NCBI GenBank assembly: GCA_044226015.1
Contig: JBGAHS010000003.1
Span: forward strand, 288,001 to 352,000
Direction: 5' to 3'
Length of the DNA: 64,000 nucleotides
Origin: Candidatus Obscuribacteraceae bacterium
GTDB lineage: Bacteria; Cyanobacteriota; Vampirovibrionia; Obscuribacterales; Obscuribacteraceae
Shown here one piece after another: positions 3,518 to 39,855 of this stretch. The notes under the pieces were generated by a model that saw only the letters and a list, made by a program, of their open reading frames with translations, ran no database searches and was not told the DNA's origin. Every line of letters starts with the position of its first letter. Position 1 is the stretch's first letter. A program made the position numbers and the translations under genes.

Positions 3518-4021
3518 TTAGCTGAACAGGTTAGCGTCACGAGCTGACGCAACTAGCCAGTTGATACAACCTGGTGTTGCTAGACCACCAGTTACGCCTG
3601 CTGCACCCCAGAGTACGCGTTTCATAGCGTCCTGTGTACCAGCAGCCATGTGCATGAAGCCCATAATCATTGTTGGACCGCCCCAAGCAATACCGAGAAT
3701 TTCCATTCCGTTCGCGATAATGTTGAGCAATGCTTCCAAGTTAGCAAGGTTGTTTACGCGCACTGTACCTGCGGTGTTCACGCCTTGAATAACGGTGGCA
3801 TCAGCGCCTTGTGGTCCGATTGTGCCGTTGGTGGCTCCCTGTAACATTGGAGCAGCTGCGCTTCCACCTTGCATTGTCTGTGAGCCTGTGTAATTTCCTG
3901 TATTCTGTGTTTGATTACCGGTTGCAGCGGTCGAATCAAAAGCATCTTGTGCGAGTGCTGGTCCAGCGAGTGTCAGAACCATTGCCGATGCCATAGTAAG
4001 TTTTGCGACGTTCTTAATCAT
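3518..4021 (-). CDS. Signal-peptide-bearing VirB2/TrbC (T4SS-pilin)-like membrane hairpin protein
   Basis: Sec signal (ALA|QD), T/G/Q/N-rich linker, then two Gly-rich hydrophobic helices separated by a short loop with a KR pair (QDAMKR); AGGAG RBS. The gene is solid; the pilin call rests on architecture only. Confidence 0.55.
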   Translation of the reverse strand: MIKNVAKLTMASAMVLTLAGPALAQDAFDSTAATGNQTQNTGNYTGSQTMQGGSAAAPMLQGATNGTIGPQGADATVIQGVNTAGTVRVNNLANLEALLNIIANGMEILGIAWGGPTMIMGFMHMAAGTQDAMKRVLWGAAGVTGGLATPGCINWLVASARDANLFS

Positions 4022-4309
4022 TGTGGTGTTCTCCTGCGGAAATGCGAATGCGATAAATGCGAATCTGCGTGTGGTGTGTGTGTGCCGCGAGATGCATAAG
4101 TAGTAAGAAACAGGTGGAACGTTCGGTTTGCCGATCGCCCAACGCGCTTTTCATAGCCGAAACAGTACAGGAATAATTTACGGTAGTCAAGATCTATTTT
4201 CCTAATCCTGGCGGATCTTTTCCGAGATATTGGCATGAATTGCTGTCAGCGCAAGGAATAGCGTCTCAGAACCCGAAACGCAGTGATGACCAACGTAAGG
4301 ATCGCCCCT

Positions 4310-4344
4310 ATGACTGAGGTCATGCCACCCATGACTAAAGTCAT
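4310..4344. promoter_or_regulatory. Tandem palindromic operator-like sites ATGAC-N4-GTCAT (x2)
   Basis: ATGACtgagGTCAT at 4310-4323 and ATGACtaaaGTCAT at 4331-4344, 21 bp apart, in the intergenic region upstream of the pilin-like gene. Confidence 0.55.
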
Positions 4345-4732
4345 GGTCTTCCGTCGGCAGGAACCGACAATTTAGATGTATTCAGCAAGTTTTTCACGTA
4401 AATTTCGCGAGCACTCGCTTAGAGTTCAAATATTCTGCTCGTGCAACAACCTCAATAAAGAAGCACAGCAGATTCTACTAATAGTTCAATCTGCAACTAA
4501 TCCCACGTTCAATATCAATAGAGATCGCCCAATGACCTTGGTTGGCACCGAAGGAGCGAATTAGATGAATGATAGTTCCAAATCAAATCTAGAAGATGTG
4601 CAAGTTCTTGTTTTTGACATCGAGCCAGAAAAGAACCAACTGAAGGAAACAGAAGTCCCTGCAGAAACGGCATCGAACAATTATCATCAGTTCTTCTCGA
4701 TTGATGATTAGTCCTCCGCATCCGACTTGTCC

Positions 4733-5722
4733 TCATGCCATCAGATTAAGCACGGCAGCAGCAGCTCGCAGACCGCTCAAATAAGCGCCCTCCACACGTC
4801 CGCTGCTACACCAGTCACCACACACGACAAGATTAGCTGATTGGAGAATCTCAAAATTCTGCTCTTCCTGCGGAATTGCATAGAGCCAGCGATGCGATTT
4901 GATGTATTCTGCGCTGATTGCTTCCTGCTTCGTAACGCTGAAAAGTTCGCCGAGCAACATTGTTGAAACATCGTCAGCAGAGAGGTTCAAGTGCTCTTCG
5001 GCCCATTCATGTGTCGAATGAAGCACCCAGCGCTCACCGCAGGGGCGAAGCGGCTTGCTAGAGTCTCGGCTAATCCAACTCAAAGATGCCCCGCTAACGA
5101 ATAGACCATCATATGGAATTTGCAATCTGCTGCTCAAGCTCACGAAGGTAGCCCAGCAGGCGGCCATCTCTATTGAAGCAGATTTTGCTTGTAAATCTGG
5201 AAAGTTCTCCATTAGCAATGCCGCTTGCGCCGCCGGAACCGCTACTACGACGGCAGCGAACCCCGAAGACTTAGAGCCATCCTCAAACTGCAGATTGTAC
5301 TTCCGTCCATCTATATCAATACGGGTCACACGCCGCTCTGTTTTCACAGCCAAATTTCGAGCGAGATACTCAGCCACAGAGCGCATATAAGGAACACCTA
5401 CATAGCGCTCATGAGTATGCCGCTCGGCTTCAAACACACCTTCGTCAACCTTAGCAATTTGCCCCTTCCATAACGCAGCCGCGTTGTTCGCGACCAATGA
5501 CCTTACTTCTTTCTGGAAGACTTCGGACCTTGCTGTGAAGTACTGTGCTCCATGGTCAAAATATGCGGAAGCGTCTGTCCGACTGGCAAATCTAGTGGCA
5601 ACTCTGCCACCAGTATGGCGTCCCTTATCAAACAACTGAACATCCACATTGTGTTTCAGCAATTCATTAGCGCAACTCAGACCAGATATTCCCGCACCAA
5701 TTATTGCTACCTGAGCTTTCAT
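4733..5722 (-). CDS. Renalase-like FAD/NAD(P)-dependent oxidoreductase
   Basis: GAGISG Rossmann motif, DKGRxxGGR, FDHGAQYFT, HRWLYA, CGDWC..RVEGAYLSG. Confidence 0.88.
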   Translation of the reverse strand: MKAQVAIIGAGISGLSCANELLKHNVDVQLFDKGRHTGGRVATRFASRTDASAYFDHGAQYFTARSEVFQKEVRSLVANNAAALWKGQIAKVDEGVFEAERHTHERYVGVPYMRSVAEYLARNLAVKTERRVTRIDIDGRKYNLQFEDGSKSSGFAAVVVAVPAAQAALLMENFPDLQAKSASIEMAACWATFVSLSSRLQIPYDGLFVSGASLSWISRDSSKPLRPCGERWVLHSTHEWAEEHLNLSADDVSTMLLGELFSVTKQEAISAEYIKSHRWLYAIPQEEQNFEILQSANLVVCGDWCSSGRVEGAYLSGLRAAAAVLNLMA

Positions 5723-5728
5723 ATCGTC

Positions 5729-5839
5729 TTATCCACCTAGTCGTCCGGAAGCATGCAGCATTGGTGAGCGCGTCGAGCGATGCAATGCACTTGCGCACAT
5801 GCGTGCACTATAGTTCTGCTCGTGAAACGAAACTGACAT
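5729..5839 (-). CDS. Putative 36-aa small protein
   Basis: AGGAG-N6-ATG; MSVSFHEQNYSARMCASALHRSTRSPMLHASGRLGG*; fills the gap between the SDR and renalase genes. Confidence 0.35.
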   Translation of the reverse strand: MSVSFHEQNYSARMCASALHRSTRSPMLHASGRLGG

Positions 5840-5861
5840 CACGGTCTCCTAAATCAATCAA

Positions 5862-6620
5862 CTAGCGAGCGGACAGACTCTGAGCCTGCGCCATCTTTAC
5901 CGTGGATAGACCTCCATCAACCGCGATCACCTGCCCAGTCACCCAACTACTCTCAGCGCTGAGAAGCCATGCAATCGCATTTGCCACGTCCTCAGGTTCA
6001 CCGAGCCTTCCCAGTGGGTGCATCGAAAGCGATGACTGGCGACTGGTATCATTTGCGGTGACTGATTTTGTAAGCTCGGTCTGCACCAACCCAGGGGCGA
6101 CGCAGTTCACACGCACTTTCTGACGCGAATACGTTGCTGAGGCAGCCAGCATGAGACCCTCGACACCAGCTTTAGCAGCCGATATCGCCTCATGATTCGA
6201 GAGCCCGATATGAGCAGCCGCGGTCGACAATAAAACGATAGAGCCGCCATCCTTCCTCATCAACTTAGCTGCAGCACGCACACAGGCGAACGCAGAATTC
6301 AGGTTTGTAGAAATCACACCGTTAAAATCAAGTTCGCTGGTGAGGTGAGCAGGTTTCAAGAGCAGACTGCCCACGCAGTTCACGGCTCCGTCGACGCGCC
6401 CGAATTTCTCTGCAGCCCTCTCAAAACAGCCATCAACATCATCGAAATTCCGTGCGTCTAGAACATGGTAATCGCAGCCGAGTTCTTTAGATAGCTCGAC
6501 CAGTTTCGCTTCGTCGCGACCAGCAGCCATCACCTTCGCACCGATGCGCTTGAGACGACGACACAGTGCGGAGCCGATGCCACCACTGGCACCGAGGACA
6601 ACATAAGATGAGTTCTGCAT
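5862..6620 (-). CDS. Short-chain dehydrogenase/reductase (atypical catalytic motif)
   Basis: GASGGIG; NCVG; ISAAK at the YxxxK position; RVNCVAPG; GQVIAVDGG. Confidence 0.88.
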   Translation of the reverse strand: MQNSSYVVLGASGGIGSALCRRLKRIGAKVMAAGRDEAKLVELSKELGCDYHVLDARNFDDVDGCFERAAEKFGRVDGAVNCVGSLLLKPAHLTSELDFNGVISTNLNSAFACVRAAAKLMRKDGGSIVLLSTAAAHIGLSNHEAISAAKAGVEGLMLAASATYSRQKVRVNCVAPGLVQTELTKSVTANDTSRQSSLSMHPLGRLGEPEDVANAIAWLLSAESSWVTGQVIAVDGGLSTVKMAQAQSLSAR

Positions 6621-6759
6621 GACTAACGAGCTTGCCTCTGTCTAACACTACGTTGTCACAATAGAACTCTTTGATGAACGCGGCGTGAACAGTCGCGTTC
6701 ACAAAGCCGGTCAAATTCAACTTGCACAATAACGTGAGCAAACGCTTTGACTGCGAACA

Positions 6760-7022
6760 AAGATAGCCCTAAGCGATACTAAGACAGAGCTACGCGATAC
6801 CAAGATAACAGAACGCGATACTGAGGCAGAGCTATGCGAACTAAGACAGCAAAACGCGATACTTAGACAGAGCTACGCGAACTAAGACAGCACAACGAAG
6901 CAGAGATAACGGCTACGCAATAGAGAGACAGAGCTACGCGATACCAAGGCAGAACTGCGCATATGCGAGAAGCACACAACGAAGTAGCGATAGCGATAGC
7001 GGCTACGCGATGCTGAGATAGC
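6760..7022. repeat. Degenerate tandem repeat, 20-21-bp unit, about 12 copies
   Basis: Consensus AAGACAGAGCTACGCGATACT; units at 6781, 6802, 6823, 6843, 6864 and onward; the last unit overlaps the stop codon of the gene ending at 7003. Confidence 0.85.
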
Positions 7023-8232
7023 GCCTGGCACGGCTAGGGTACTGCAGCAATAACTCTAGTGTAGAAGCTGCCGATGGTCCAATCATGAATTCACCCATCT
7101 GCGTTTCCATTGCCTTCAGCGTAGCGACCATATCAACCAGACTTGTTTTATTCGCCTTGCGCGCCTTCGCCAGCCCGCGAGCATGCAATCTTGCTAGCGT
7201 ATATGCCATGACGAGATGATGGAACCCGGTGACCATGCTCAGATGTCCGAACCCGGCACCGAAGTACTTCTTGCCGAACAACATTGAATACACATAACGG
7301 TAGATCATGTCGTTGATCTCAGGATCATCCTCTGGAAAGGGAAATTCCTTCAGCTGGTCAATTGCATATGTTTCGACAGCCGATGGCGTGTTGAATTCAA
7401 AAACGCTTCCCGCCTTGAACCAGACACCAAGCCAAAACTTCGGCACGTTAAAAAGCGCTCGGAAGTTGCGACGAGGGAAATACATTTTGTGAAAGGTGGA
7501 CAGCAAATGCTTATCAATTTTGTTCAGGGCAGCTGAACGCTGCTCTGTTGACGCCTGGGCCGCCGGCGCTTTAGCGGAAGCTGCGCCACCTCGAGGGGTG
7601 CTTGCGACAAGCTCGGCAAGGTAATCACAGCAGTCCATCAAGCGCTCGGTCATCGTTTTACTCTTATCATTGATGCGCTTCATCAGCTCTGCCTCGTACT
7701 GCAGATACTGGTCCCAGGTGATGGGCTGTTCGACTGACAGTTGAATCTTCGACCAATCAGCGGTGTAGTGAGGATACAACTTTTTGAAATCAGCAAACTT
7801 CTGATTGATGGTATCACGCTGCTCGACAAGCGGCGTTCCCTGATTGTGCAAAACGGCTAGGCTGACAAAGCTTACAGTGGCATACACACCCGAAGGAGTC
7901 TCAGTGAAAGCATAGGGAAACTGCTGGCAAATCGTCGGCTTGAACGGCCCACCCTTCTCTCCGTGAATGAAACAAAGCTTGTTCACAAGAAAAGGACAGG
8001 TATCATCTAACGAAACAATACGGTGGGTGTAGCCGGTTCCAGCCCTTTCGTGCGGCTTCAGCTCACGAAACATGGGGCGCTTCCATTCATCCTTGAACTG
8101 CCCCCAATCAACGGAGGAAACACGCTTATAGTCTTCCTCCGACATGTTAACGGACCAGCCGCTGCAGCAAACTCCGCACCCCTGGCAGTCGTAGTTAATT
8201 CCCTCTGGAATGTGAATTTCAGTGTTAGGCAT
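7003..8232 (-). CDS. YkgJ/FliB-like CxxCxxCC cysteine-cluster protein
   Basis: CQGCGVCC, CPFL..LCxIH, KPxICQQFP motifs. Likely start MPNTE at 8232. Confidence 0.75.
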   Translation of the reverse strand: MPNTEIHIPEGINYDCQGCGVCCSGWSVNMSEEDYKRVSSVDWGQFKDEWKRPMFRELKPHERAGTGYTHRIVSLDDTCPFLVNKLCFIHGEKGGPFKPTICQQFPYAFTETPSGVYATVSFVSLAVLHNQGTPLVEQRDTINQKFADFKKLYPHYTADWSKIQLSVEQPITWDQYLQYEAELMKRINDKSKTMTERLMDCCDYLAELVASTPRGGAASAKAPAAQASTEQRSAALNKIDKHLLSTFHKMYFPRRNFRALFNVPKFWLGVWFKAGSVFEFNTPSAVETYAIDQLKEFPFPEDDPEINDMIYRYVYSMLFGKKYFGAGFGHLSMVTGFHHLVMAYTLARLHARGLAKARKANKTSLVDMVATLKAMETQMGEFMIGPSAASTLELLLQYPSRARRYLSIA

Positions 8233-8398
8233 AGTGAGTCCGATAAAGTTGATTAGTAAGGTGCCTAAAACAATATGCCAGGGAAACTGCAAATTATGCA
8301 AGACATAACAACGATAAAGACAACATGAATAAGCAAAGAGTTTCCAAGATGAAGATTATGATGGTAGTGCTAGGTACTTTGGAAATTCCGAGGCGACC

Positions 8399-8791
8399 AT
8401 GGAATCAAACACTAACCCCCAAAATCAAAATAACGACAGTTCGAATAATACTTCTAACAACACTCAGGCAAATCAATTTAAAAAGGCAATCGATGTTTTT
8501 GCTGATGCCAGCAACCAGGTTTTAAGCACTGTAGGCTGGGTCGCGCAACAATTGAATGCGCCAGGAAATGTCTTTCGCCTGTCTGACGCATTAGGACAAA
8601 CTGCAGAAATCACACTCTCCATTCCCGCTGCTGGCACTGGTGAAATCGTTGTTTTGCTCGGAAAAAGTCGAAGGTATTACGCGGCAAAAAGCAAAGATCC
8701 GCAAGCGGAAATTAAGCGTGGTAGTAAAGTAAAAATTGTGGATATCGCAGTCAGCACAATGTATGTCGAACCTATTCAAATAGAGTCATAA
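8399..8791 (+). CDS. NfeD-like C-terminal OB-fold protein lacking TM helices
   Basis: GxxAEITLSIPxxGxGEI...A.S...IKRGxKVKIVDI..MYVEP pattern; GAGG RBS. Confidence 0.6.
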   Translation: MESNTNPQNQNNDSSNNTSNNTQANQFKKAIDVFADASNQVLSTVGWVAQQLNAPGNVFRLSDALGQTAEITLSIPAAGTGEIVVLLGKSRRYYAAKSKDPQAEIKRGSKVKIVDIAVSTMYVEPIQIES

Positions 8792-8982
8792 CGACGCTTT
8801 TGAGGTTTGTAGCCTTCTTCAAGCAAATAATTATTTCTGCGAACTATAACAGACTTGTTGGACGGTTGTTGGCTAAACTATAAATAGAATCCCGCCTCAG
8901 TATTCACGGTGCTGACCAACGAAAGCAAAGCGAATTGCGCCTTTGCGGAATCCCTCCATCGCAGAACGGTAGGATCGCCGCT

Positions 8983-11900
8983 ATGAAGAACACTATCTTT
9001 CCCTCTCATAAAGACCGCACAAATAGTACTCGGCTATTGTGCGCTCTGGCACTCTCCATCGGCATCATTAGCGCAGACTCTGCATTTGCAGACAATCTCA
9101 CGCCAGGTTCAAATAACAGCGGATTACTCGGCAATGTGCTTGGAGCAAATGGACTTCTACACAATGTCACTACATCGCTGCCAGGAACAGTCAACAATTT
9201 GACGGCACCTCTAAGCGGCGTTGCACCGCGCGCGGTGCCTGCAATAAACAACATTAGCAATTCGCTGATTCAGCCGGTAGCGGCTCCTCTCTCAAACATA
9301 ACTGGCAACCTTCCTATCAATAATATTTCGGGAAATCTGCCCATCAACAATGTTTCTCACACGCTACCGATATCTAATATCGGCAGCATGACTGGTAATC
9401 TCCCTGGCGTATTCTCCAGTGCAGCCAGCGCAGTTCAAAACGGCTCTACCGGCTCTCACCTGCACACAGGTCTTCCAAACAACATTCCTGGCACAAGCCA
9501 TCTAAACCATTCGCTAAACAATAAGCTCTTACAGCAAAATCAAAAGGCAAATAAGGTGAGCACACAGTTGTCCGTTCCAGGGCAAGTAACACTCATTCAA
9601 GATGCCTCGAGAATTCCCATATACAGCGTGCCAAGCGTAGCAGCAGCGCGCGGACTGAGTGCCATCAGCGGTAAGTTCACCGAGCTTCCAGTAGCAAAAC
9701 AGATGCCTTCATCGAGCCTTCACCCTAGAGCGGGCACAGAATTTATTCATGATGGCAGCGGCAATATTCAATTGCATCACGGCACGATGCTTGTTTCAGT
9801 GGCAAACCAAAAGCACTCAGGGCTTGTTCATACTCCAACTGGAGCGGTGTGGATAGGAAGGAAGGCAAACGTTATCATTCAACAGAATGACAATCTACTG
9901 CGCATTCAAAATCTAGATAGCATAGGACACAATGTTCGCCTGAACATCGGCTCAAAGCTAGATAAGCTAGAATCTATTGCCGTCGGTGCAGGATATGAAT
10001 TGGTTGCATCAAATTCGCCGCTTACTAGAGAACAGCTATTTCCCGCCGATGGAGTAGGTAGAAGAGCAAGCATTCTGGTCGGCAACGGCCACATTGGCGT
10101 GTCCGAAATCAATCTTGTCTCGCTTATAAAATCAACCCCAACCATTCTGGGTCTGCAACGGTCGAATGCTGAAGATAGACAACTCTTCAATACCCTTACA
10201 AAAACAGCGGCAGTACTCGACTTCACGCGGGGAAGAGTGGGCTTCATTAGTATTGCTCCGATTGTACAAGACCTTGGACAAACAGCACGAACTGTAACCA
10301 GAACGGTGACAGGAGTAGTGCGCAACGCGGCGTCGGATGTGCTGGGTATAGTATCAGATATTTTGCCAGGAACCGGGGGTGGAACGACACCACCGCCTGT
10401 GGTGCCCCCTGTCGTTCCTCCGGTTGTTCCACCCATCACACCGCCACCTCCCGGAACACCAGGCGGTCCAGGCGTGGGCAACGGAACTGGGTCATCAGCT
10501 CAGCAAGTTCTACCAAACGCCTCAGCTTCATTACCTGGAACAACAGTTGCACCAGTTGAACCATCGATCTTACAAGCAACCACATCGGAAAGTCGTTCAC
10601 CGGTAGTTCCAACCGACATAACTCCAATGTCCCGCCAATTCAAAGAAGACCGAGCGCAGCGGCAGCAGAGCCCTGCTTCATTGACGAAGTCACGATCGCA
10701 GGACAAACGGCAACTCGCACTTTTCCACGAGCAAGCACATCCAGCCGAAACGGCATCGGGCAGTCGCAGAGACAAAGAACAATCGAAGCAATGGCTCAGA
10801 CAAGACAATCAGCAAGACCCTTATGCTATGCCAGACTACCCATTCCTGAGCAATCTGGTCAGCCCAACGCATCACCCGTCCGCATCCAATCAAGCACCAA
10901 TTAAGGTTTCGTATCCGAGACATTTCATGTCTGCGGTAACGGAGAACGTCCGAAGGTTTCCAGAGTTCTTCATAGCGATGGCAGCAGCAATTGCTTTGCT
11001 ATTCATCGTTGCTTTATCTCTGGCTAGAACCGCTCTAACTCGCGCGCGACAGCTAAGCTCAACTAACGCTACTCTCAGCAAAGAAATTCAAGAACGCAAA
11101 CAGCTTGAATCAAAAACTCTTGAGCTTAACGAAGCGCTGGAAAGGAGACTTGATGAATTAGCACTGCTGAACAAAGAACTGGAGCAAGCGCGAGACCAAG
11201 CAGTAGAAGGCTCGCGCCTGAAGTCAGAATTCGTCGCGAATATGTCGCACGAAATTCGCACTCCTTTGAGCGCGGTCATCGGCATGAACTCACTTCTGCT
11301 GTCATCAAATAATCTCGATAAATCTGAAAAGGAATATGCAGAATCAGCAAATAGCGCTGCGCAATCACTCCTCATTTTAGTAAACGACATATTGGACTTT
11401 TCGAAGATGGAAGCAGGAAAATTGCAAGTCGAGTCAGTGCGATTCTCGCTGCCAGATCTTGTTAAAGAGGTCGTTGAAATGTTGACGCCCGAGGCGAAAC
11501 AAAAACAAATCGTCTTGAGAAGCCGCATCGATAGCGACCTGAGAACGTTTTATGTTGGGGATCCACTCCGCTTGCGGCAAGTTCTGGTCAATCTGGCGAA
11601 AAACGCACTGAAGTTTACTAACGACGGAGAGGTGTATATTTCTGTTGACCCTGCCAGGCAGAGCGCCGAATTAGACAACGTTCGATTCACTGTTTCCGAC
11701 ACAGGAATTGGCATTTCTGATGAGGCAAAGGATTTATTATTCCAACCTTTTGTTCAAGCTGATGGTTCCACCACACGAAGATTTGGAGGCACCGGATTGG
11801 GACTCTCCATAAGCAGAAAGCTGGTAGAACTAATGGGAGGTTCAATTCAGTTCAGAAGCGTTCTTGGAAAAGGTTCAAAATTTTGGTTTGACTTGCCATT

Positions 11901-12378
11901 GGAAGCAACAAAAGAAGAGAGCAAAACACAAGACGCCGTCGCAGCAAAAACCGAAGAACCATCATTGAAAGCACCACCATTGGCCGGCGCCGTGCTTGTA
12001 GCCGAGGACAGCCTCGTTATGCAACGACTCACTCGCCAGCTACTTGAAAAACTCGGATGTACTGTAAAGCTTGCATCAAACGGACAGGAAGCACTCGAAG
12101 CTGCGACGCATGAAAAGTTCAGCATTATCTTCATGGATTGGCAAATGCCAGAGCTAGACGGGCTTCAGGCAACTCAGAAGATTCGCGAAATTGAAGAGCA
12201 GCAGGGCGACCACACACCGATAATCGCGCTGACTGCCAATGCAATGCAGGGCGATAAGAAAACTTGCCTTGCTGCAGGAATGGATAGTTATTTGAGCAAG
12301 CCTTACAAAATCGAGGACTTACTGAGCAAAATTCACAAGTATGCAAGAAAAGAAGAAGAACAGAAGGCTCAAGATTAA
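8983..12378 (+). CDS. Hybrid sensor histidine kinase/response regulator with a very large extracytoplasmic region
   Basis: Signal peptide, repeat and Pro-rich regions, one TM, coiled coil; H-box [12 protein letters not shown]-box [22 protein letters not shown]; receiver with AED..MDWQMP..KP. Confidence 0.92.
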
Positions 12379-12431
12379 TAAATTGGAGAGACAAAAAAGA
12401 TAGAATTCCCTGACCGAACCGGGGATCCTAA

Positions 12432-16302: not shown

Positions 16303-16316
16303 ACAGGAGAATAGCC

Positions 16317-16904: not shown

Positions 16905-16968
16905 ATTCGTCGTCGAAATTGAAGTTGAAATCGAACTTGAATTTCATTGAACTTAGCGCAGATGAGGT

Positions 16969-25439: not shown

Positions 25440-25462
25440 CCAAATAACCTGATTCGCGACGT

Positions 25463-27499: not shown

Positions 27500-27511
27500 C
27501 GCGAATTCAGA

Positions 27512-29364: not shown

Positions 29365-29451
29365 TCAAATGCAATAGCAAACGTAAACAAAACCGGCAGC
29401 TGTAGCTGCTGCAACGCCTACGTAATACAAACCTTCTACTAATAAGATCAT
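29365..29451 (-). CDS. Putative 28-aa single-TM peptide
   Basis: GGAGGTG SD 7 nt before ATG; MILLVEGLYYVGVAAATAAGFVYVCYCI*. Confidence 0.5.
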   Translation of the reverse strand: MILLVEGLYYVGVAAATAAGFVYVCYCI

Positions 29452-29594
29452 TTCTCAGCACCTCCATGCGCTAAGAATAAAGTGCAGTGGTAAACGTTCG
29501 GTTAAGGAAATCGATTTCGCTAAGTTTTTTCAGTCTCCTTTATAATGAGACTGATTCTTCTAACTAACAAAACCCGCCCCCAAGTGCTCAGTAA

Positions 29595-30407: not shown

Positions 30408-30423
30408 TCAGGTCAGGGCAAAC

Positions 30424-31104
30424 ATGCAGAAAAGAACGCTGGAAGAACTCTTGAACAGGGATGATCCTGCATGGCCTCTAATTATCAATTGGATGAATGA
30501 AGGCAAAAACAAAGTCGAAGTTCTGCCTGCTAGAGAGCCTGATAGAGCGAACGCGCTGCTAGAAGTTCAGGTCACAACACGCTCACCCATGGGTGCCATC
30601 GTTTATGAAACTGGTGGCATGCTCGTCGACCATGGCTGGCTGAGAATACTTGGTTCGGGTTCTGACAAAATGAATCGGTCTCTAGCAGGATGGAACGCAG
30701 AGATAGGCAACAACATAAATTCAGGAGATGTGCCACCATTTTTGTTGATTGCTGACGATGTGATCGGTGGATTTTTTGCGCTGGACAATGGATTTTTCGG
30801 AAACCCATCGCGCGTCTTCTATTTCTCTCCTGATTCTCTTGATTGGGAAGACACAGAAAAGGGCTACACAGATTTCCTGCTCTGGTGCTTTAACGCAGAT
30901 CTGACTCTATTCTATTCCGACTACAGATGGGCTGGCTGGGAAAACGAAGTCGCCGAACTGAACGGCAACCAGGCATTTACTGTTTATCCATTCCCATTTG
31001 CAGATGGTCCACCAATCGGCCAGCGCAGCCGAGGTGTCGCACCTGTAGCCGAATTGTTTGGACTCTACACAGGCGACCTTCGAGAGCAGTTAGGATTTGA
31101 ATAG
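30424..31104 (+). CDS. DUF2625 family protein
   Basis: QVTTRSPMGAIVYETGG..DHGWLRILGSG, IADDVIGGFFA, PDSLDWE. Confidence 0.85.
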   Translation: MQKRTLEELLNRDDPAWPLIINWMNEGKNKVEVLPAREPDRANALLEVQVTTRSPMGAIVYETGGMLVDHGWLRILGSGSDKMNRSLAGWNAEIGNNINSGDVPPFLLIADDVIGGFFALDNGFFGNPSRVFYFSPDSLDWEDTEKGYTDFLLWCFNADLTLFYSDYRWAGWENEVAELNGNQAFTVYPFPFADGPPIGQRSRGVAPVAELFGLYTGDLREQLGFE

Positions 31105-31306
31105 GCTTCAATCAATAATTTTTTTGTTTGACCGCGACAAACCTTGTACCGTGCAAGCAAATTTCAGTGCTAGCACATTTTTTTGTTTGTTTTTCAACTT
31201 AGCCGAAAATGATGGGGCATGTTGAACCTGACGACCATACTGAATGTGGAATTAACCATACCAAAATCAGACCGGCCCAGTTAGCATTGCTCCAATCGGA
31301 GGGATT

Positions 31307-32239
31307 ATGATTGTAGATGGCGCAGCCAGGTCATTCTTTGCCAACCTTGGTCGACTAACTGGGGCTGCAGAAACAGCTTCTGCCGAGCGACTGTCGGCTT
31401 CCGCGTGGGCACATGCAGTCGAAACTTTGGCTCCCAATCCGAAACAAATCGAGAATGCGGCTCTAGCAACATTGTCCAGGGTGCCGGCATTGCCAACAAT
31501 GGGTCGAGCTGAGCTTGAGAGTCTCCTATCAAATGGCAGCATCAAATACACAAGCAAACCCGCAGAAATGGCAGGCTTTACACACATCAAAACTGGAATT
31601 ATTCAATCGCAAAATGGTGAAATCGTACCAATCGTAGAACGTTCGCTCACTCCACAAAAGACAGCAACAGAGCTGAAAGTGGCGAAAATAAGTGAACTTA
31701 TGCCATTTAGCAATATTTCGCCCGTGACAGTTCCGAACGGCGCCAGCGACGTAATACAACAGCGCGTCGGCATGTCCCTGGAGGAATGGGCCTCCAGAAC
31801 CGACCATAGTTTGCTGGGTGTTGCGCGGGAATGGAACCATGGAGCAACGCCCTTTAGTTTCTCGAGAAGCATGAAAAGTATGCCGTTTCGCGAACAGATG
31901 CTTCAAACCCAGGTACAACGCTCAATTCTGGGCGATTTTGATTCCACTCCTGCTAATTTCGGCATAGCCTTACAGAACCGACGCATAATGATAGCTAACC
32001 TGGACATGAACCAAGCGTTAGAGTTGGTCGCAAGACCTGCGGCTCCGAATATTTCAAGTCTCAGAGGAATGCAGCTTTCGTCGCGAACAATTTCAGCCGT
32101 AGAAAGATTCGCCCAGTTTCAACGCACAGCAGCCGGCTCTGAAGCACTTCATGCCACCGGAGCGAGTTCGCAAGAATTACATTACATGCTAAAGCGCACG
32201 GAATGGTACTTAAAATATCGGCAGCTTGGACCGTTATAG
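31307..32239 (+). CDS. Hypothetical protein with a degenerate HipA/PI3-PI4-kinase-like C-terminal motif
   Basis: GGAGGG RBS; ILGDFDSTPANF...NLDMNQA resembles GDxDRHxxN...D. Confidence 0.45.
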   Translation: MIVDGAARSFFANLGRLTGAAETASAERLSASAWAHAVETLAPNPKQIENAALATLSRVPALPTMGRAELESLLSNGSIKYTSKPAEMAGFTHIKTGIIQSQNGEIVPIVERSLTPQKTATELKVAKISELMPFSNISPVTVPNGASDVIQQRVGMSLEEWASRTDHSLLGVAREWNHGATPFSFSRSMKSMPFREQMLQTQVQRSILGDFDSTPANFGIALQNRRIMIANLDMNQALELVARPAAPNISSLRGMQLSSRTISAVERFAQFQRTAAGSEALHATGASSQELHYMLKRTEWYLKYRQLGPL

Positions 32240-32647
32240 AACCAAGAGCATCTCGTTTGATCTAGCTTCCACCGGAGAGTTCAAATGAAGATGGAAACAT
32301 GCTTAAACGGCTCGCTCTAATTTACTGTCGTTGAATGGGTAAGTTACAGAATTCCTGCAATTTTTAATTACACTCACCGTGTAGCAGAAATTTCCATTGA
32401 GGACGAACGGACGCTTCTTTCAGAATTAGCACAATATTGTGCACTAAATTCAAAGTATCAATGCATGTTTCAGCACCGTCAAAAGCACATTGCTACCCAA
32501 CACAATTTTTGGCGTGGTGCTCTTCCCAAAATTGACTAGCATTTCATTTTGCAATAGTCATAATTGGCTGGTAATGAAACGATCCCAAAAGAGCTGCATC
32601 ATAGTGGCGAGCAGCACAGGTGATTACACTTACAACAAGAGGTGAGT

Positions 32648-33175
32648 ATGGAGCAATCCACTATGGAATCAAGAGTGATTTCAAATGAGGCATCAAATGA
32701 AGGTATTGCAGCTAAGAATCTGCTTGATTGTGTACATGATTGCTTGTCTGCTAATGAAAACAATCGGACAGGCAAAGTCACGGGGATAGGTGGAGTCTTT
32801 TTTAAATCGCACGTCGATCAGCAGGTGCTTAGAGATTGGTACGAAGAAAATTTAGGATTGAAAATCGACAAGAACATCGGTGTTGCGAAATTGATGTGGT
32901 CTGACGACAAAGCTGATGATGGGGGCGTGACGGCATGGGCACCTTCAGCAAAAACTGAAGAGTGGTTTAGTCCTGGTAAACCAGAATTCATGATCAATTA
33001 TCGGGTCGATAACATACAAGCAATACATGAGCGACTGAAGAAGAATAATGCAAATATTGTTCAGGGACCAGAGTCATACGAAAATGGCAAGTTTCTCTGG
33101 GTATTGGATCCTGATGGAAATAAAGTTGAACTTTGGGAACCACGTCGTTGGAATGATAAGAACAAACAACCCTAG
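32648..33175 (+). CDS. VOC/glyoxalase family protein
   Basis: KVTGIGGVFFKS, WYEENLG, FMINYRV, GKFLWVLDPDGNKVELWEP. Start uncertain. Confidence 0.88.
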   Translation: MEQSTMESRVISNEASNEGIAAKNLLDCVHDCLSANENNRTGKVTGIGGVFFKSHVDQQVLRDWYEENLGLKIDKNIGVAKLMWSDDKADDGGVTAWAPSAKTEEWFSPGKPEFMINYRVDNIQAIHERLKKNNANIVQGPESYENGKFLWVLDPDGNKVELWEPRRWNDKNKQP

Positions 33176-33334
33176 TTGGAAATAGGCTGCGCAGCGGCTG
33201 CGGTTACCCACCCTGGCACCAGCGGCAGTGCCTATCTCTTTCTTTGTGGACTCAACATTGACGACAAGAACGCTTGGCTTCTTTTTCAGCGGCATGTAGA
33301 TTTCATCTGACTTGTGACGCGAGCCAAATCCTCG

Positions 33335-33679
33335 CTATTCGATTGGTCCTTGAATCACCCATTCGCCAGCGATCCACTTCTTCACTATCTGCCTAGTGTC
33401 GCCAGGATTTTCCAATCCATGTTCTTTTTTTGCTCTTTCATAATTGGCGTCGCTAACTTTCACTACAAATCCGCCGATGCCATGTCCTCCCTCAACACTG
33501 TAATCTGTGACCCGGACTCCGATATCTCCATTGTCTTGCATTTGCGCCCACTCCCACATGCTGCCTTCGCGAGCCTTGCGTTCAATTGCAAATTCAGCTT
33601 GTTCTTCAGAAGTAGGATCGGTCATGTTCTTCAGTTTCTCGCGCATTCGGCTGAGACGCCCTGACTGCTCACTGGTCAT
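33335..33679 (-). CDS. Hypothetical protein (114 aa)
   Basis: GGAGG RBS and plausible composition; no family recognised. Confidence 0.6.
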   Translation of the reverse strand: MTSEQSGRLSRMREKLKNMTDPTSEEQAEFAIERKAREGSMWEWAQMQDNGDIGVRVTDYSVEGGHGIGGFVVKVSDANYERAKKEHGLENPGDTRQIVKKWIAGEWVIQGPIE

Positions 33680-33880
33680 TTAAAAGATCCTCCATTGCCT
33701 TCAAGAAATTTGGCTCACCTTTTCCTTGTCCGATGATTGAGTTGTATACCTCTTCGGCCTGTTCAAATTTCTTTTGCTGAATAAGCTTTTCAGCAATCTT
33801 GAACTGATCTGCCTTCTGTTCCGTGTTCCAAGCCTCACTTAGCTTGGGTATATAGTCCTATGTACCCAGGAGCTGCGCTG

Positions 33881-34411
33881 ATGAGCAATGACGGACAAGA
33901 CAAGCAAGAGCGGCCCGAACGTCAGCTGGACCGGCAGCCCGAGCATGTGAAACGCGCTCAGGGCGAAATAAATGCAAATGTCATAGAAGAATTTGCGCAT
34001 GAGTCGTACCATGTAACCCACCAGTTTCTGAATAAGCTTTATGCCGGTGACAAACTTGATCAAAAGACGTATACCGACACATTTATGTGGGGGGAAGTTG
34101 GCTCAATGCTGGCTGAGTCTGCTGTTCATTCAGAACTAGGGCATCCTGGACACACAGATTTCAATTACTTAAAGCCTGATGGCAAGGCAGATGCGTTACA
34201 CATTGATGAGTTTATGAAGACGCACACAAAGAAGGATCTTTTTGATTTTTTGTATACTCATCCCCCCTCGGGAAAGGGTGAGGAACTGTATCCGACGCAT
34301 TATGCCGCTAACTACAAAAACTACGAAGCGGTCTACCAGAAAAACAAACCAGCGGCCCTTCAATATGTAAAACGTTGGGTGCAGAGCGGACACAAAGCAG
34401 AAGACATTTAA
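33881..34411 (+). CDS. Hypothetical protein with HExxH zincin-like motif
   Basis: AGGAG RBS before 33881; FAHESYH followed by a downstream Glu (WGEV). Confidence 0.55.
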   Translation: MSNDGQDKQERPERQLDRQPEHVKRAQGEINANVIEEFAHESYHVTHQFLNKLYAGDKLDQKTYTDTFMWGEVGSMLAESAVHSELGHPGHTDFNYLKPDGKADALHIDEFMKTHTKKDLFDFLYTHPPSGKGEELYPTHYAANYKNYEAVYQKNKPAALQYVKRWVQSGHKAEDI

Positions 34412-34806
34412 TAGCAGTGGCTCTTAACTTCGATGTTGCTGACGGTACCAGATGGGGAAAACGACAGGTCTAAAGTCTTCCAAGTGTAACCACACTGATC
34501 GACTCCTTGCACATGGTCTAGAGTGTAGCTGTAGTAAGCATCATAATGCCCCCACATACCTTCCCCAGCTTCATGATCGTCATTAGGCTTTCCCAGTATC
34601 CTTAAGACTTCTAGTTTTGTGGCTTTTTGAAACCGCTGTTTGATGTAATTGCAAGCGACCGAGGGTCTCGAATGCTGCCATTCAGATCTGTCGAATCCTT
34701 GTAGTAACGCGAAAGAATCTTGAGCGAAAACGTTTATCTTAGGTAATAGACAAGCCGTCAAGGCGGTCAAGAAACAAACAAAACTAATCAGCAAAAGTCT
34801 TTTCAT
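34408..34806 (-). CDS. Exported small protein with a BamE/SmpA-like motif
   Basis: MKRLLL signal sequence; TKLEVLRILGKP...YSY...LSF...V pattern. Confidence 0.5.
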   Translation of the reverse strand: MKRLLLISFVCFLTALTACLLPKINVFAQDSFALLQGFDRSEWQHSRPSVACNYIKQRFQKATKLEVLRILGKPNDDHEAGEGMWGHYDAYYSYTLDHVQGVDQCGYTWKTLDLSFSPSGTVSNIEVKSHCY

Positions 34807-34944
34807 AGTTACTCGAGTTTGCATTGAAAGCAAGTATTCCACAACCCGGTAAACCGCATAATCCGGGTCGTTACTATCAATCAGGTGGAATATTGGCAGT
34901 GTTCTCATACGGCTCCTCGTTTACGCAAAAATCTTTCAGCGCTT

Positions 34945-35525
34945 GCAACCACCAAGCAGTGATCTACTTGTACCGTAGTCGACAGGGGCGCCGCCGATAC
35001 TCGACTATTTAGAGCAGCCACCGACATAGCCTCTTTCCACAAAGAGCGCCAGGAAGGAAAAGAGAAAGCCGAGAAGCAGTTTGATTGAGCGAGGATACAT
35101 CAAATAATATTCCTCATTGTTCAGGCACTTCGCCAGGCGAAACACCAAGCTTATGGCGTTCGCTTCGAAGATCAGAAGGTCCATTTTGCACAATGCTATC
35201 GTCGTTTGGAATCTCACTCAGCTACCAGAGCTTTGCGAGACTGACTCCACACCGACTTGGCCCCATCGACACCAGGCGGCAAGACTCGTTGAGGCTCAAA
35301 AGCCCCTCGTCGTACATCCTCTGTTCTGAACAGAAAGTCACCTTGTGGCATAGGACCATGGTAAAGTTGCCCCATTAGGCGATGCGGAATAAATTCCCGC
35401 ACCACTGGGCTATCTTTGTCATAGCGAAAGCTACGCCAGGGAGACTGTATCCAGCGGATCGGATCTTGCCAGCCGTCAGCTTTATCGCTCGCAACCACCA
35501 AGCAGTGATCTACTTGTACCGTAGT
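34945..35525. repeat. 35-bp exact direct repeat (34945-34979 and 35491-35525)
   Basis: GCAACCACCAAGCAGTGATCTACTTGTACCGTAGT in both places; one copy is inside the 35214-36590 CDS. Confidence 0.9.
35005..35217 (-). CDS. Possible small membrane protein or gene remnant
   Basis: 70-aa ORF overlapping the upstream stop by 4 nt; C-terminal hydrophobic stretch. Confidence 0.3.
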   Translation of the reverse strand: MRFQTTIALCKMDLLIFEANAISLVFRLAKCLNNEEYYLMYPRSIKLLLGFLFSFLALFVERGYVGGCSK

Positions 35526-36590
35526 ATCTAGGATCGGTGGCTTGCCGTCATGCGCGTCTAGAGCAGGAAAAAACAATAGGTCAGGATGCTGCGGCTCGTA
35601 CCACCAAAGCATAGGAGAGGACTTTTGAGCATCCCGATTATCGAAGCAACAAAGAGCGATGGTCCACCCCTTATACCACTTGGAATAAGCATCAAATATC
35701 TCGTGATTAAGTTTGGGGCGTTTAGTCTCCGGGACTTTATTGAGGACACTTGGTATTTGCGATGCGTCAGCAGCGAGCACCACTGTATAAATACCGCTGT
35801 TAAAGACCATGGGTCCATCGAATAGGCTGGCATCGCGGCCAGAAGCACAAAGCCAGTTAACCATCCCTGGAAATGCTAGTCCCATAATAATGAGCTGAAC
35901 TCCAGTTGCAATACGGCGAACCCTGAGATTCTTCTTGCTTAAGCCAATAACAATGAACACAGCTCCACAGATTAAGCCACCTAGCTCTGCAAAATTTGCG
36001 CTTGTATTCAGCAGCGCCTCAAGGTTGGCCAGATTGTTGATACGTACTGTGCCAACGGTATTAATTTCCGGAAGCTTCGGAGCTAGCCACATCCATAAGA
36101 GTCCAATCGCGCTCCCTGCCACCACGATTAATATCATGATTGCCGTAGCACTTAACCAGGATAATATCAACGGCTTTAGAGCCCTGATGATGGTTGTCCT
36201 GAACCGTATACAAAGACCAATGCAAATCACACCGAGCACACAAAAGACTGTAAACGGATCAACAATCGGTTCTGTCACCGTTGCCTGCATCTTGTCCATA
36301 AAGTCCGCGATATTGGACGTGTCCACAATATTTTTTTCTGACATTGTGCCGGGCACTGCAGGGATCGGCAAAAACATAGCATTGCCTCCTGTTGCTCCAT
36401 TCTGGGCGGTGTTTTCATAACCCAAGAGATGGATACGTTTACCATCCTTCTCAAGTTCCGACACGAAGCCCACGGTGTTGGTAAACTCGGCAAAGTCAAG
36501 AGAGCAACAGGCGAACGCAGCGATACTACAAAGAGAAATAAAAAGCGAAACAACCAGCAAGCATGCTGCTTTAATATGCTTCCGCAACAT
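35214..36590 (-). CDS. Exported uncharacterised protein carrying an internal 4-TM insert that includes a pilin-like module
   Basis: Signal peptide; globular halves (HLLGYENTA..NAMFLP / YTVVLA..CCFDN..PALDAHDG..VDH) flank hydrophobic helices; the insert is homologous to the C-terminal half of 3518-4021. Confidence 0.8.
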   Translation of the reverse strand: MLRKHIKAACLLVVSLFISLCSIAAFACCSLDFAEFTNTVGFVSELEKDGKRIHLLGYENTAQNGATGGNAMFLPIPAVPGTMSEKNIVDTSNIADFMDKMQATVTEPIVDPFTVFCVLGVICIGLCIRFRTTIIRALKPLILSWLSATAIMILIVVAGSAIGLLWMWLAPKLPEINTVGTVRINNLANLEALLNTSANFAELGGLICGAVFIVIGLSKKNLRVRRIATGVQLIIMGLAFPGMVNWLCASGRDASLFDGPMVFNSGIYTVVLAADASQIPSVLNKVPETKRPKLNHEIFDAYSKWYKGWTIALCCFDNRDAQKSSPMLWWYEPQHPDLLFFPALDAHDGKPPILDTTVQVDHCLVVASDKADGWQDPIRWIQSPWRSFRYDKDSPVVREFIPHRLMGQLYHGPMPQGDFLFRTEDVRRGAFEPQRVLPPGVDGAKSVWSQSRKALVAE

Positions 36591-36816
36591 GAATTACCCC
36601 CCGAAGGCACCTAACATCGAATGATTACTATAGAGGCCGGAGGCAAGTTAGTGCAAAATTGTTTCTGTGAATATGTTCACATGATTCCTGATTGGCGCTT
36701 GCTCGGCGTCAATAGATAGAGAAAGGCAATTCAAAAAATGTATTTTGACAATGCAGAAATTGGAAATCGGCACGACAACCGTTGGACATAGATAGAGCAA
36801 ACAGGTCCTCGATCGT

Positions 36817-39800
36817 TTGGCGAATCGGGGCGCGGATGAAACTGACAAAACTGTGAACTTAAGCAGTTCAGAAACACTCAGGGAAAACCCCGTTGATCGG
36901 AGTCAAAGTAAATACGAATATGGGCTACCATCTGGGAGCTTGCTTCATTTGAAAAAGTACCTGGCGAAATTCGATTCCGCAATAAGCGACAGAAACTTCC
37001 CTCTTTGGGTTTTGGCAACAATCGCCATTCTGACAATGCCGACTCGATTTCAACCGATTGCGTTTTTCCTTGTCGTAAGCAGTGTATTTTACAGGTATTT
37101 GAAATTACATCCAGGCGCGCTGAATGATCGAGCGGTGCTCTTCCGACCGGAAATACAAAAAGCTGCGCTAATTGGATTTGTATGGCTTCTCTGGCAAGCC
37201 GGACTACCCTTTTGTTACTGGGGAATGCCAAGCCAAATAGCAATTCCACTGATTCTTTCTACATACTTCTGCCCGCTTTTGGCCTATATTGCCGTCGTTT
37301 TAGCAGCTGGCGCATCGCATCCGAAAGCAAGCAAAAGCAGTGAGGCTGAAGATGAAGGCGTAAAAGCAAAATCGCAACGACAGCTTGAACACTGGACACA
37401 TACAACCTGTGCAGGCTACATGAGCGCATTCGTCGTCAGCATGATTGCAATTGCATGTTTTCCGTACAGTCTCGGAAAGTGGGTTACAGGATGGCTGTTA
37501 GCTTCAGGAATCGACGCGAACCTACCTGGCATGAGCGAATTTATCGCACGAGAAATATATATATTTGGAACTCAGGCTCACCCAATCTACGTGGTGCATG
37601 AACCAGCATCTGTGGTATTCGGGCAACTCGTAAGCATGGCATTAGCACTCCTCTTAATCTTCGGACTCTGGCCCAAAGCCCTCAAATTCTCGGCATTTCT
37701 GACAATATGGACAAAGAAAACAAAAGGAACTTCAAAGGCAAATCCCTTCGAAACCTTCATATCCACAATCAGGGCAGAAAAAAGCACAATTGAACTGAAG
37801 AGAACAAACTCTTTCAAGCGCAATCTATTCAACAGCGCTACATGGCTCATATCATGCTATCTGTCACTGTTTTTGTTTTTTGGATTTTGCGGGGGACCAT
37901 TAGGGAAAGCAATTTCCGGCTGGATGAACGGGTCTCTCGTAAAAGCATTCAGCACTGGCAAAGGAACCAGCGCCCCAACACAACTAAGAGTCGCGCCACC
38001 ACAAGATGCCATAAAAGCAGAGATTGATCCGGCGAAGCAAAACAGCACAACGAAGTCAGCAACAGCTTCAAGAAGAAATAGACTTCCAAAAACAAAGTGG
38101 TACCAGAGCGTCCCCATCAAGCATTCGTATGTGATGAAAGAACGAAAGGGAATTCAGGCGTGGATTGACAAAAACGGTGTAGGCGCGCACCCGAATCTCA
38201 GAGTTTTTCTTGCGGCAATAATTGCGTTATATGGCACAGTTCCACTATCAGTGATGGGCGCAGTCTTTTTGCCATACCTTAAACGAAAGAAAATCGTGCT
38301 GAGCAAAGACGCTATCTTCTTACCAGAAAATTCAAAGGGGCTAATGGGTTCGAAGGCTTTAAGACTCTGGTCAGAACTTGCATCAGTTAACTTGAAACTG
38401 AAAAAGAACAACAGCCCTGAAAGTGGAAGCTTAGAAATCAGATTCCACGACAAGAGCAAGGTAGAACTAAAAATAGCGCAAATGAAAGATCAAGAGTTGG
38501 AGACATTCCTTTCCGCGATTGACGAGAATTCGCCTGAGTGCTCAGTTTCCGACGAGGTTCTGGACTTCAGGCATCAACTCAGAACAAAAACAGGTAGTAG
38601 AAATTTAGACAAAGAGATCAGTTCAATCAGCGGCGACCAATTTCAATCGACTATTTTTCAAACGCATGAGCCAGGAGCCTATCTACCTGACGGAGAAACA
38701 CGAATCGTTCGTTTATTGGCTTCGCGTCCACTTTCCTGTGTCTATCTTGTTCGCAGAGCGAACGGTAAACTGGGAATCGCAAAGCAGTTTTTCCTGGCAG
38801 GAAATGACGAAGAAACAGAGGCGATGCGTAAATGTCTTCAGCGCGAATACGAGCTTCTCGGCAAAATTGATCACCCATCAATAGCAAAAGTGCTTGAGGT
38901 TTTCCAGCGAGAAGAATCAACATACCTATTGCTCGAACATGTTTACGGAACAGACCTGCGCACCCTCGTTTCATCTCAAGGTGGTCACCCGGAAGCAGAG
39001 ATTTACGACTGGGCAATTCAAATCTGCGACATCATGACTTACTTGCACTCTCAAGATCCCCCCATACTTCACAGAGACTTGACACCAGACAACCTGGTTC
39101 TCACAGAAGAAGGAAAAATCCGTGTCATAGATTTCGGTGCTGCGCAGAGATTTGTAGAAGGAATCACCGGCACAATAATTGGAAAGCAATGCTATGTTCC
39201 TCCCGAACAATTGCAGGGACACGCCAGTGTAAGAAGCGACATTTATAGCTTTGCCGGTGTCCTTCAGTTTTTGCTAACCGGCGAAGACCCAGTCGCATTG
39301 ACTCAGTCAGACCCGTCGCTCAATTCAAATGCTTCTGCCGAACTGAGCGCCGTAGTTAAACAATGCAGTGAGTTTGACGAAAGCCTGCGACCAGAGTCTT
39401 TTGAAAAGGTAAAAGAGCTTCTGATGGATGCTCGAGAAAAGCCTGTCAAAGAAGTAATTCAAAACTTGAGAAAAGTAGCCGAATCTCAAGACATAGCGAC
39501 TGCATTAATGAATGTTCTGCGAGGAACACAACAAAGCGCGGAAGCAAACTCACAAGTCTCTCCGAAAGCGCAAGCAAGCACCGAAGCGCCAACCATCCCT
39601 GCCGAAACGCAAGCAAGCTCCGCAGAAGCGCCAGCCATCCCTGCCGAAACGCAGGCAAGATCCGCAGAAGCGCCAGCCATCCCTGCCGAAACGCAGGCAA
39701 GATCCGCAGAAGCGCCAGCCATCCCTGCAAAATCAACGACGGATTGCCACGAAGAACAAACCGTCATAGTCAGCACCATTACCAAGCTAGACGTATCCAA

Positions 39801-39855
39801 TAAATCCGAAACGGAAGATTCCCTATTAGTTAAAGCAGGCGTAGCGCAGGAGTAG
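36817..39855 (+). CDS. Polytopic membrane Ser/Thr protein kinase (C-terminal kinase domain)
   Basis: Multiple N-terminal TMs; AKQF, RE, HRDLTPDN, DFG, YVPPEQ, SDIYS. TTG start uncertain. Confidence 0.9.
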   Translation: MANRGADETDKTVNLSSSETLRENPVDRSQSKYEYGLPSGSLLHLKKYLAKFDSAISDRNFPLWVLATIAILTMPTRFQPIAFFLVVSSVFYRYLKLHPGALNDRAVLFRPEIQKAALIGFVWLLWQAGLPFCYWGMPSQIAIPLILSTYFCPLLAYIAVVLAAGASHPKASKSSEAEDEGVKAKSQRQLEHWTHTTCAGYMSAFVVSMIAIACFPYSLGKWVTGWLLASGIDANLPGMSEFIAREIYIFGTQAHPIYVVHEPASVVFGQLVSMALALLLIFGLWPKALKFSAFLTIWTKKTKGTSKANPFETFISTIRAEKSTIELKRTNSFKRNLFNSATWLISCYLSLFLFFGFCGGPLGKAISGWMNGSLVKAFSTGKGTSAPTQLRVAPPQDAIKAEIDPAKQNSTTKSATASRRNRLPKTKWYQSVPIKHSYVMKERKGIQAWIDKNGVGAHPNLRVFLAAIIALYGTVPLSVMGAVFLPYLKRKKIVLSKDAIFLPENSKGLMGSKALRLWSELASVNLKLKKNNSPESGSLEIRFHDKSKVELKIAQMKDQELETFLSAIDENSPECSVSDEVLDFRHQLRTKTGSRNLDKEISSISGDQFQSTIFQTHEPGAYLPDGETRIVRLLASRPLSCVYLVRRANGKLGIAKQFFLAGNDEETEAMRKCLQREYELLGKIDHPSIAKVLEVFQREESTYLLLEHVYGTDLRTLVSSQGGHPEAEIYDWAIQICDIMTYLHSQDPPILHRDLTPDNLVLTEEGKIRVIDFGAAQRFVEGITGTIIGKQCYVPPEQLQGHASVRSDIYSFAGVLQFLLTGEDPVALTQSDPSLNSNASAELSAVVKQCSEFDESLRPESFEKVKELLMDAREKPVKEVIQNLRKVAESQDIATALMNVLRGTQQSAEANSQVSPKAQASTEAPTIPAETQASSAEAPAIPAETQARSAEAPAIPAETQARSAEAPAIPAKSTTDCHEEQTVIVSTITKLDVSNKSETEDSLLVKAGVAQE
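39562..39733 (+). repeat. In-frame 42-bp tandem repeat (x4) in the kinase tail
   Basis: Encodes (AETQARSAEAPAIP)n; the last two units are nearly identical at DNA level. Confidence 0.92.

Follow-up and report, generated by a model that had tools for sequence, protein, structure and literature searches.

A stretch of 64,000 nucleotides from Candidatus Obscuribacteraceae bacterium (contig JBGAHS010000003.1, positions 288,001 to 352,000), here called the window, raises the question of why a small secreted protein, a chimeric protein and a membrane Ser/Thr kinase share an 11-residue motif directly after a hydrophobic helix. The original prediction regarded the three as otherwise unrelated and proposed that the motif couples a pilin-like filament to Hanks-type phosphorylation. 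The shared motif is real: it is the tail of a module of about 105 residues (module A, with the small proteins forming family A), and the system to which it belongs is order-wide and larger than that prediction saw. The genome containing the window comprises 8.19 Mb in 13 contigs, and the order Obscuribacterales was sampled with 107 genomes. In our judgement there is about an even chance that the small protein serves as a major pilin of the VirB2 type, with conserved ends that are processing or recognition signals, borrowed by VIT/vWA proteins, by the chimera and by kinases.

The shared motif and its module

When the coordinates were re-read, all three 11-residue motifs translated at nt 3527-3559, 35823-35855 and 37492-37524. 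The 226 bp said to separate the divergent kinase and chimera genes is correct with a TTG start for the kinase; the public gene call (968 aa) is 44 residues shorter, so that by this call the gap would be longer. The proteins are less unrelated than was supposed, since the similarity of the small protein to the chimera extends well beyond the motif, with 93 residues aligned at 44% identity (E 2e-19). The kinase shares the tail, corresponding to the last 14 residues of the module, and in pairwise comparison matches 8 of 11 residues over an 11-residue span (E 0.058). This match is weak and the window alone is therefore insufficient to establish the kinase motif, but the family data do establish it. 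In 30 kinase homologues (29 from other genomes and one paralogue; 23 of the 29 foreign loci were selected by their best segment outside the motif), Trp is present in 27, Asp in 29, and Ala and Asn in all 30. These proteins are only 18-36% identical to the window kinase in the motif region. Their consensus, NWLLASARDANLF, is nearer to the small protein than is the drifted copy of the window kinase itself, and in some kinases 13 of 14 residues match the tail of the small protein.

Profile searches led to the same module. Run against 39,189 open reading frames (ORFs) of the window genome, a hidden Markov model (HMM) built from the kinase motif alone found the eight small genes (E 1.5e-6 to 3.5e-6) together with the kinase, the chimera and two VIT fusions; in a control of 6,185 reversed genes no match was better than E 0.72. 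In the reverse direction, a tail HMM from the VIT fusions missed the window kinase at E <=5 among the ORFs of the same genome. The seven fixed motif residues are expected 0.009 times per genome, for a motif that was defined after the fact.

Family A combines a predicted Sec signal peptide, recognized by its sequence pattern, with a two-helix hairpin, which is the VirB2/TrbC architecture. AlphaFold2 (AF2) on 82 sequences gave a helical hairpin (pLDDT 83) with helices at residues 22-65 and 71-101 of a 106-residue module; an earlier run with a shallow alignment (pLDDT 48) was discarded. After removal of the signal peptide the protein is predicted to be a membrane hairpin with both ends outside. 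Its helices are rich in Gly and fail a hydropathy threshold of 1.4, and Asp, Lys and Arg occur once each in the loop, so that the earlier description of two hydrophobic helices with a basic loop suits the fused copies better than the small protein.

The ends are the most constrained parts. Among 240 module A proteins examined, 214 of the 218 with a scorable tail have an Asp followed by exactly five residues, the next residue being Ala in about 80%, and Gly85 and Asp162, which delimit a span of 78 residues, are conserved at 96-98%. The window genome carries eight copies of the small gene (76-98% DNA identity), which over their 28 pairs differ by 1003 synonymous and 29 non-synonymous codons; by eye, terminator-like hairpins were seen 3' of all eight. 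Module A occurs in 106 of the 107 order genomes, in tandem arrays, with more than 90% identity in the best 150 matches listed, and its profile retrieves 595 clusters at 50% identity. It was not found in 300 other genomes of the phylum that were sampled, and the profile found nothing in 118 other genomes of the class. Relatives occur in sequencing runs from sludge, biofilm and soil. In four of four RNA runs from four studies, the runs having been chosen by this gene, both the small gene and family B (see below) are covered by contigs of relatives; such contigs cannot rank expression.

The array of the window genome extends over 47 kb with unrelated genes between the copies. The region C6:245238-292021 behaves as an insertion hotspot, its six copies being interspersed with many unrelated genes, among them a paralogue of the chimera family. 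Divergent small members, some in clusters of their own, are candidate minor pilins (C12:62548-63000 [L007], L054:8781-10125 and L098:4702-6969). Two others, at L101:133-1056 and L102:3982-4878, are extended behind the signal peptide by a long stretch of Gly-rich repeats and adjoin a two-component system, and a TPR-rich protein (L098:2-2695) has the head motif alone, about 90 residues before its end.

The main carriers of the module, overlooked by the original prediction, are VIT/vWA proteins. They account for 174 of 181 longer carriers, the rest being a second chimera and six small proteins with a Gly-rich extension, and 119 of 120 longer matches have the module at their very C-terminal end. 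Of the six VIT proteins in the window genome, two end in the whole module A, one in module A without the tail, and one (C4:38891-42970, the only such carrier) in the head motif with a single helix and a basic tail; module B ends another, and the sixth ends in a PEP-CTERM signal beside the sole exosortase. The last pair lies just beyond the end of the window (C6:353269-356453, L112). Across 162 fusions, conservation is mostly about 80-100% at the ends and about 15-45% on the helix surfaces, and 130 of 138 full-length VIT carriers have at least three further transmembrane (TM) helices. The two ends are also found separately, as two recognition sites would be: one VIT protein has the head, and kinases have the tail. 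Elsewhere in the window, a 2122-residue ORF (45698-52066) has no Pfam match.

The kinase is an accessory within the proposed system. Its Pkinase domain scores 117.6 bits against a cut-off of 31.7. From the Lys/Arg bias across the family, the motif follows an in-to-out helix and lies in a Lys/Arg-poor loop predicted to be outside, the face also predicted for the tail of the small protein. The motif kinase was found in at least 37 of the 107 genomes (the best 39 matches, from 37 genomes, all in long frames at kinase loci), at loci unlinked to module A genes. It co-occurs with the small gene, though trivially, because the latter is present in 106 of the 107. Thus none of the three conditions by which the original prediction would have been refuted was borne out. 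A search of a large protein set with the kinase region returned only the window kinase itself, and the neighbouring 729-aa kinase lacks the motif in alignment. The window holds three consecutive Ser/Thr kinase genes (36817-44245), and the genome about 149 kinase-domain genes. A predicted complex of the kinase membrane region with the module scored 0.00 and was not used either way.

In the chimera the module is a rare insertion. It is present in two of 33 segments of this family, and the paralogue in the window genome is without it. The kinase-chimera pairing, pointed out in the original prediction, is not conserved: 29 kinase loci have no chimera-family gene within about 1.5 kb, and the second chimera has no adjoining motif kinase.

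Table 1. Positions of the features discussed; those without a prefix refer to the window, and prefixes are the handles of contigs (C) and loci (L).
Feature	Position	Strand	Remark
Small secreted hairpin protein, family A, 167 aa	3518..4021	-	likely major pilin-like subunit; first gene of array
Predicted Sec signal peptide, residues 1-24	3950..4021	-	ends Ala-Leu-Ala; sequence pattern, hydropathy window 5-23
Conserved head motif, G80-N91	3749..3784	-	retained in fusions; partly, without the remaining module, in one VIT protein
Conserved tail, P150-S167	3521..3574	-	Asp162, then exactly five residues
Intrinsic-terminator-like hairpin between small gene and M48 gene	3469..3490	-	
Other five array copies	C6:245238-271128		family A gene array
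CxxCxxCC / FliB-like protein	7003..8301	-	conserved upstream array neighbour; candidate modifying enzyme
Chimera	35214..36590	-	widespread family with two TM helices, module in variable linker
Module A within chimera, residues 174-258	35817..36071	-	
Polytopic membrane Hanks-type Ser/Thr kinase	36817..39855	+	Pkinase E 8.5e-34
Tail motif in kinase	37492..37524	+	follows predicted in-to-out helix
Second, degenerate motif copy in kinase	37894..37956	+	again follows predicted in-to-out helix; family consensus GPLGxAIxxWMxASxxDAG
Type IV secretion-like locus 1	C10:63035-90202 (L108, L109)		VirB4, VirD4, Replic_Relax, family B; order conserved in other genomes read
Type IV secretion-like locus 2	C1:182285-205260 (L110, L111)		adjoins riboflavin genes

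Secretion-like loci and array neighbours

The window itself holds no gene of a type IV secretion system (T4SS), but two VirB4-like ATPases are encoded elsewhere in the genome (Table 1), with matches above the cut-off of the TraG P-loop family and below those of the VirB4/TraC NCBIfam models. Of the 107 order genomes, 106 have VirB4 homologues, in most cases two paralogues of which the closer is usually 73-92% identical, so that a cognate machine for a pilin is available almost throughout the order. In the class, VirB4 and module A are found in the same 33 of 151 genomes. A T4SS has been described in Vampirovibrio, as T-type (PMC4451040); papers cited here by PMC number were available in part, and the statements drawn from them extend to those parts.

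Locus 1 contains a second invariant, multi-copy hairpin protein, grafted in the same way as family A and likewise overlooked by the original prediction. This family B protein (142 residues) is present in 101 of the 107 genomes, mostly at 86-100% identity and often in arrays, and it ends VIT-type proteins of 1000 residues, again with conserved ends and variable helices. Family B lies within a virB3-virB4-virB6-type locus and the family A arrays do not, the VirB3-, VirB6- and VirB8-like labels at locus 1 being assigned by size and position only. At locus 2 no small hairpin gene was found in the window genome or in four other genomes read on both sides, and family A would be the obvious orphan for it. 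A gapless alignment of families A and B made by eye failed in profile comparison and was discarded. A DUF2225-like zinc-finger gene lies upstream of the VirB3-like gene in most loci read, at both VirB4 loci, and C6:531998-535876, the best match of a large locus-2 protein from another genome, encodes a possible further VirB6-like paralogue.

The neighbours of the arrays were read at 16 main-array loci from other genomes, chosen from match lists. Of 15 testable arrays, 14 are flanked by a FliB-like gene and all 15 by a ThiF-like gene; in each count one locus runs into a contig edge. Neither neighbour was seen beside a secondary single copy or a divergent array. The FliB-like protein of the window is above the cut-off of PF03692 and below that of NF038110 (E 1.5e-10), and its gene occurs in 32 of 33 genomes of the order and in none of 118 other genomes of the class. 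No flagellin was found in the 107 order genomes, so the FliB-like protein has a different substrate. The ThiF-like proteins are distinct from canonical MoeB, none of ten aligned having an intact Gly-x-Gly-x-x-Gly nucleotide-binding loop.

The M48 peptidase downstream of the small gene, formerly a candidate processing enzyme, is a bystander, one of the unrelated genes between array copies: a terminator separates the two genes, and an M48 domain was found at none of 24 other neighbourhood loci. In one genus the FliB-like gene lies 16-20 kb from the second VirB4 gene, with about 12 housekeeping genes between them, and no link is claimed.

Readings of the module

Under the preferred reading, family A would be the major pilin of an order-wide chromosomal type IV secretion-like machine, that of locus 2, whose VirB4 would polymerise it. 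The pilin would be trimmed after Asp162 with the loss of five residues. A second cut, before Gly85, would perhaps give a 78-residue ring as in cyclic pilins; this N-terminal cut is a conjecture. Passenger proteins retain the ends and not the helix surfaces, which suggests that a factor shared with the pilin, for maturation or recruitment, receives or cuts them and that they are not packed intact into the filament. The polytopic nature of most full-length fusions likewise makes intact incorporation less plausible than shared processing or recruitment. VirB6, to which pilin recruitment is ascribed in known systems (PMC12857230), might also read the motif. The kinase may present its tail to the maturation factor and so report the activity or occupancy of that factor; a role for it as sensor or substrate is the least supported step, and the co-assembly or sensing proposed originally is an inference.

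For the pilin identity itself, the nearest neighbours in the ESM Atlas offer a lead: TrbC/VirB2 ranked top (0.88, below the 0.9 mark, with 176 shared features), and the other named neighbours listed (DUF4134, DUF2976, Maff2, DUF3852 and T4SS_pilin) are likewise all small membrane families of T4SSs or integrative and conjugative elements. Sub-cut-off matches to T4SS_pilin were obtained in three of 87 family A members and to CagC in one. Searches by Foldseek (E >1) and VIA (Z up to 8.5) returned only generic hairpins, with no pilin among the matches listed for these or for PDB sequence searches, and the small protein of the window matches no Pfam or NCBIfam family. The VirB2/TrbC architecture proposed originally thus gains from the two VirB4 loci and the language-model neighbours and loses on the HMM and locus tests. 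Because the latter two failed, family A is not classed as a member of VirB2; it behaves like a VirB2 pilin, and membership is not proven.

Several observations weigh against the preferred reading. None of the 87 members reaches the cut-off of a pilin HMM (best E 0.0029, 18.1 bits against 26.6), and PF04956 and PF18895 find nothing in the window genome. Family A is encoded at neither VirB4 locus in the genomes read, families A and B give no significant alignment, and the positional candidates for VirB3, VirB6 and VirB8 have no family matches. The co-distribution of VirB4 and the module reflects a single shared origin and not independent co-occurrence. In the window genome the locus 2 VirB4 gene is interrupted by two in-frame TAA codons in succession, which are either a genuine break or an artefact of assembly, and all eight small genes keep the module intact. 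The mature N-terminus would lie 60 residues before Gly85, so that a second cut is required, and no maturation enzyme was identified, two adjacent S26 peptidase genes on C5, distant from both VirB4 loci, being all that was found. Finally, the VirB2 arrays that accompany chromosomal T4SSs in Patescibacteria are variable, with a mean identity of 25% (PMC12102498), in contrast to the more than 90% seen here.

The extreme C-terminal placement would suit a sorting or anchoring signal equivalent to PEP-CTERM, with no pilus, in which case the small protein would be an abundant envelope protein consisting of little beyond the signal. The exchange of PEP-CTERM for module A or B in five of the six VIT proteins of the window genome fits this account, as do the sub-cut-off matches of VIT carriers to XrtN, MSEP-CTERM and sortase-target models and the further TM helices of most carriers, which would be awkward in a filament. 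Yet nearly all the passengers belong to one family where many unrelated ones would be expected, the full module is a hairpin ending outside rather than a motif, a helix and a basic tail, stand-alone copies predominate, and the similarly behaving family B sits inside a VirB4/VirD4 locus; we consider this explanation unlikely. The sole exosortase adjoins the PEP-CTERM protein, none being assigned to the module. We are about equally doubtful of an account that accepts the pilin but treats the kinase motif as a shuffled amphipathic helix serving only the membrane fold of the kinase, with no functional link. The two helix copies in the kinase, the patchy and unlinked distribution of the kinase, the drift of the window copy and the abundance of kinase-domain genes would all be explained by it; the retention of Asp-Ala-Asn across such divergent kinases, and the close match of some of them to the pilin tail, would not.

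The FliB-like and ThiF-like neighbours of the multi-copy small genes also admit a peptide-modification account, in which the genes encode precursors akin to circular bacteriocins or ribosomally synthesised and post-translationally modified peptides, processed by the two flanking proteins; the lack of flagellin leaves room for such a substrate. However, the putative core is invariant and not cationic, no conserved transporter or immunity gene adjoins the arrays in the neighbourhoods read, and the lack of an intact nucleotide-binding loop in the ThiF-like proteins aligned speaks against it as well. The same neighbours would suit modification of a pilin, FliB being known to modify a filament subunit (PMC8598068), and the peptide account seems to us very improbable. 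An extension of the pilin reading that we think rather improbable, though a little less so, envisages two pilin-addressed channels. Each core T4SS would have its own invariant pilin, the maturation enzyme would cut or ligate any protein ending in the head and tail of that pilin, which would then reach the machine in question, and the kinase would display its Asp-Ala site outside, maturation there switching phosphorylation inside.

That nearly all genomes possess a pair of T4SS-like loci and a pair of invariant pilin-like families points to a core function in contact or DNA exchange. If the preferred reading holds, grafting of the module would be a new way of tagging proteins for, or sensing, a secretion machine; a pilin interchangeable with PEP-CTERM, twice over, would be a new sorting principle, and a kinase with a pilin-processing site a new input to bacterial Ser/Thr signalling. 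No description of this system was found in the literature covered on pili, T4SSs and conjugation in Obscuribacterales, Melainabacteria or Vampirovibrionia, which consisted mostly of open-access texts, available in part and without their supplements.

Comparison with known systems

The VirB2/TrbC/TrhA pilins (PF04956) share with family A the signal peptide, the hairpin and the predicted location of both ends outside. Two further parallels are of sequence only. TrhA of R27 is cyclised between Gly1 and Asp69 with the loss of five residues starting with Ala (PMC12037004), by an enzyme described as unknown and tolerant (PMC13031515), and has a short C-terminal tail after Asp comparable to that of family A. 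TrbC of RP4 is a 78-residue ring made by TraF (PMC13434634), the size of the candidate ring in family A. By contrast, family A has no HMM match above cut-off and no specific fold match to these pilins, has about 60 extra residues after the signal peptide, and it is chromosomal, order-wide, unlinked to VirB4 and reused in other proteins.

The VIT proteins of PEP-CTERM/exosortase systems (TIGR02921, TIGR04477, TIGR04286) resemble the fusions in their passengers and in the C-terminal slot. Here, however, the tag is an entire hairpin protein, module A, of which there are many free copies as well, and no adjacent sortase was found at the fusion loci listed. The FliB-flagellin pair (NF038110) offers the likeness of a CxxCxxCC FliB-like gene adjoining the genes of a candidate filament subunit present in several copies; it differs in that the NF038110 score here is sub-cut-off, the order is without flagellin, and only one Lys is found in the small protein once mature.

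The T4SS of Patescibacteria with its VirB2 arrays (PF18895) comes closest, having in common with the present system a lineage-wide chromosomal VirB4 and tandem pilin-like genes, sometimes with other genes between them. Obscuribacterales differ from it in having two VirB4 paralogues, two hairpin families, the C-terminal grafts on VIT proteins and the kinase motif.

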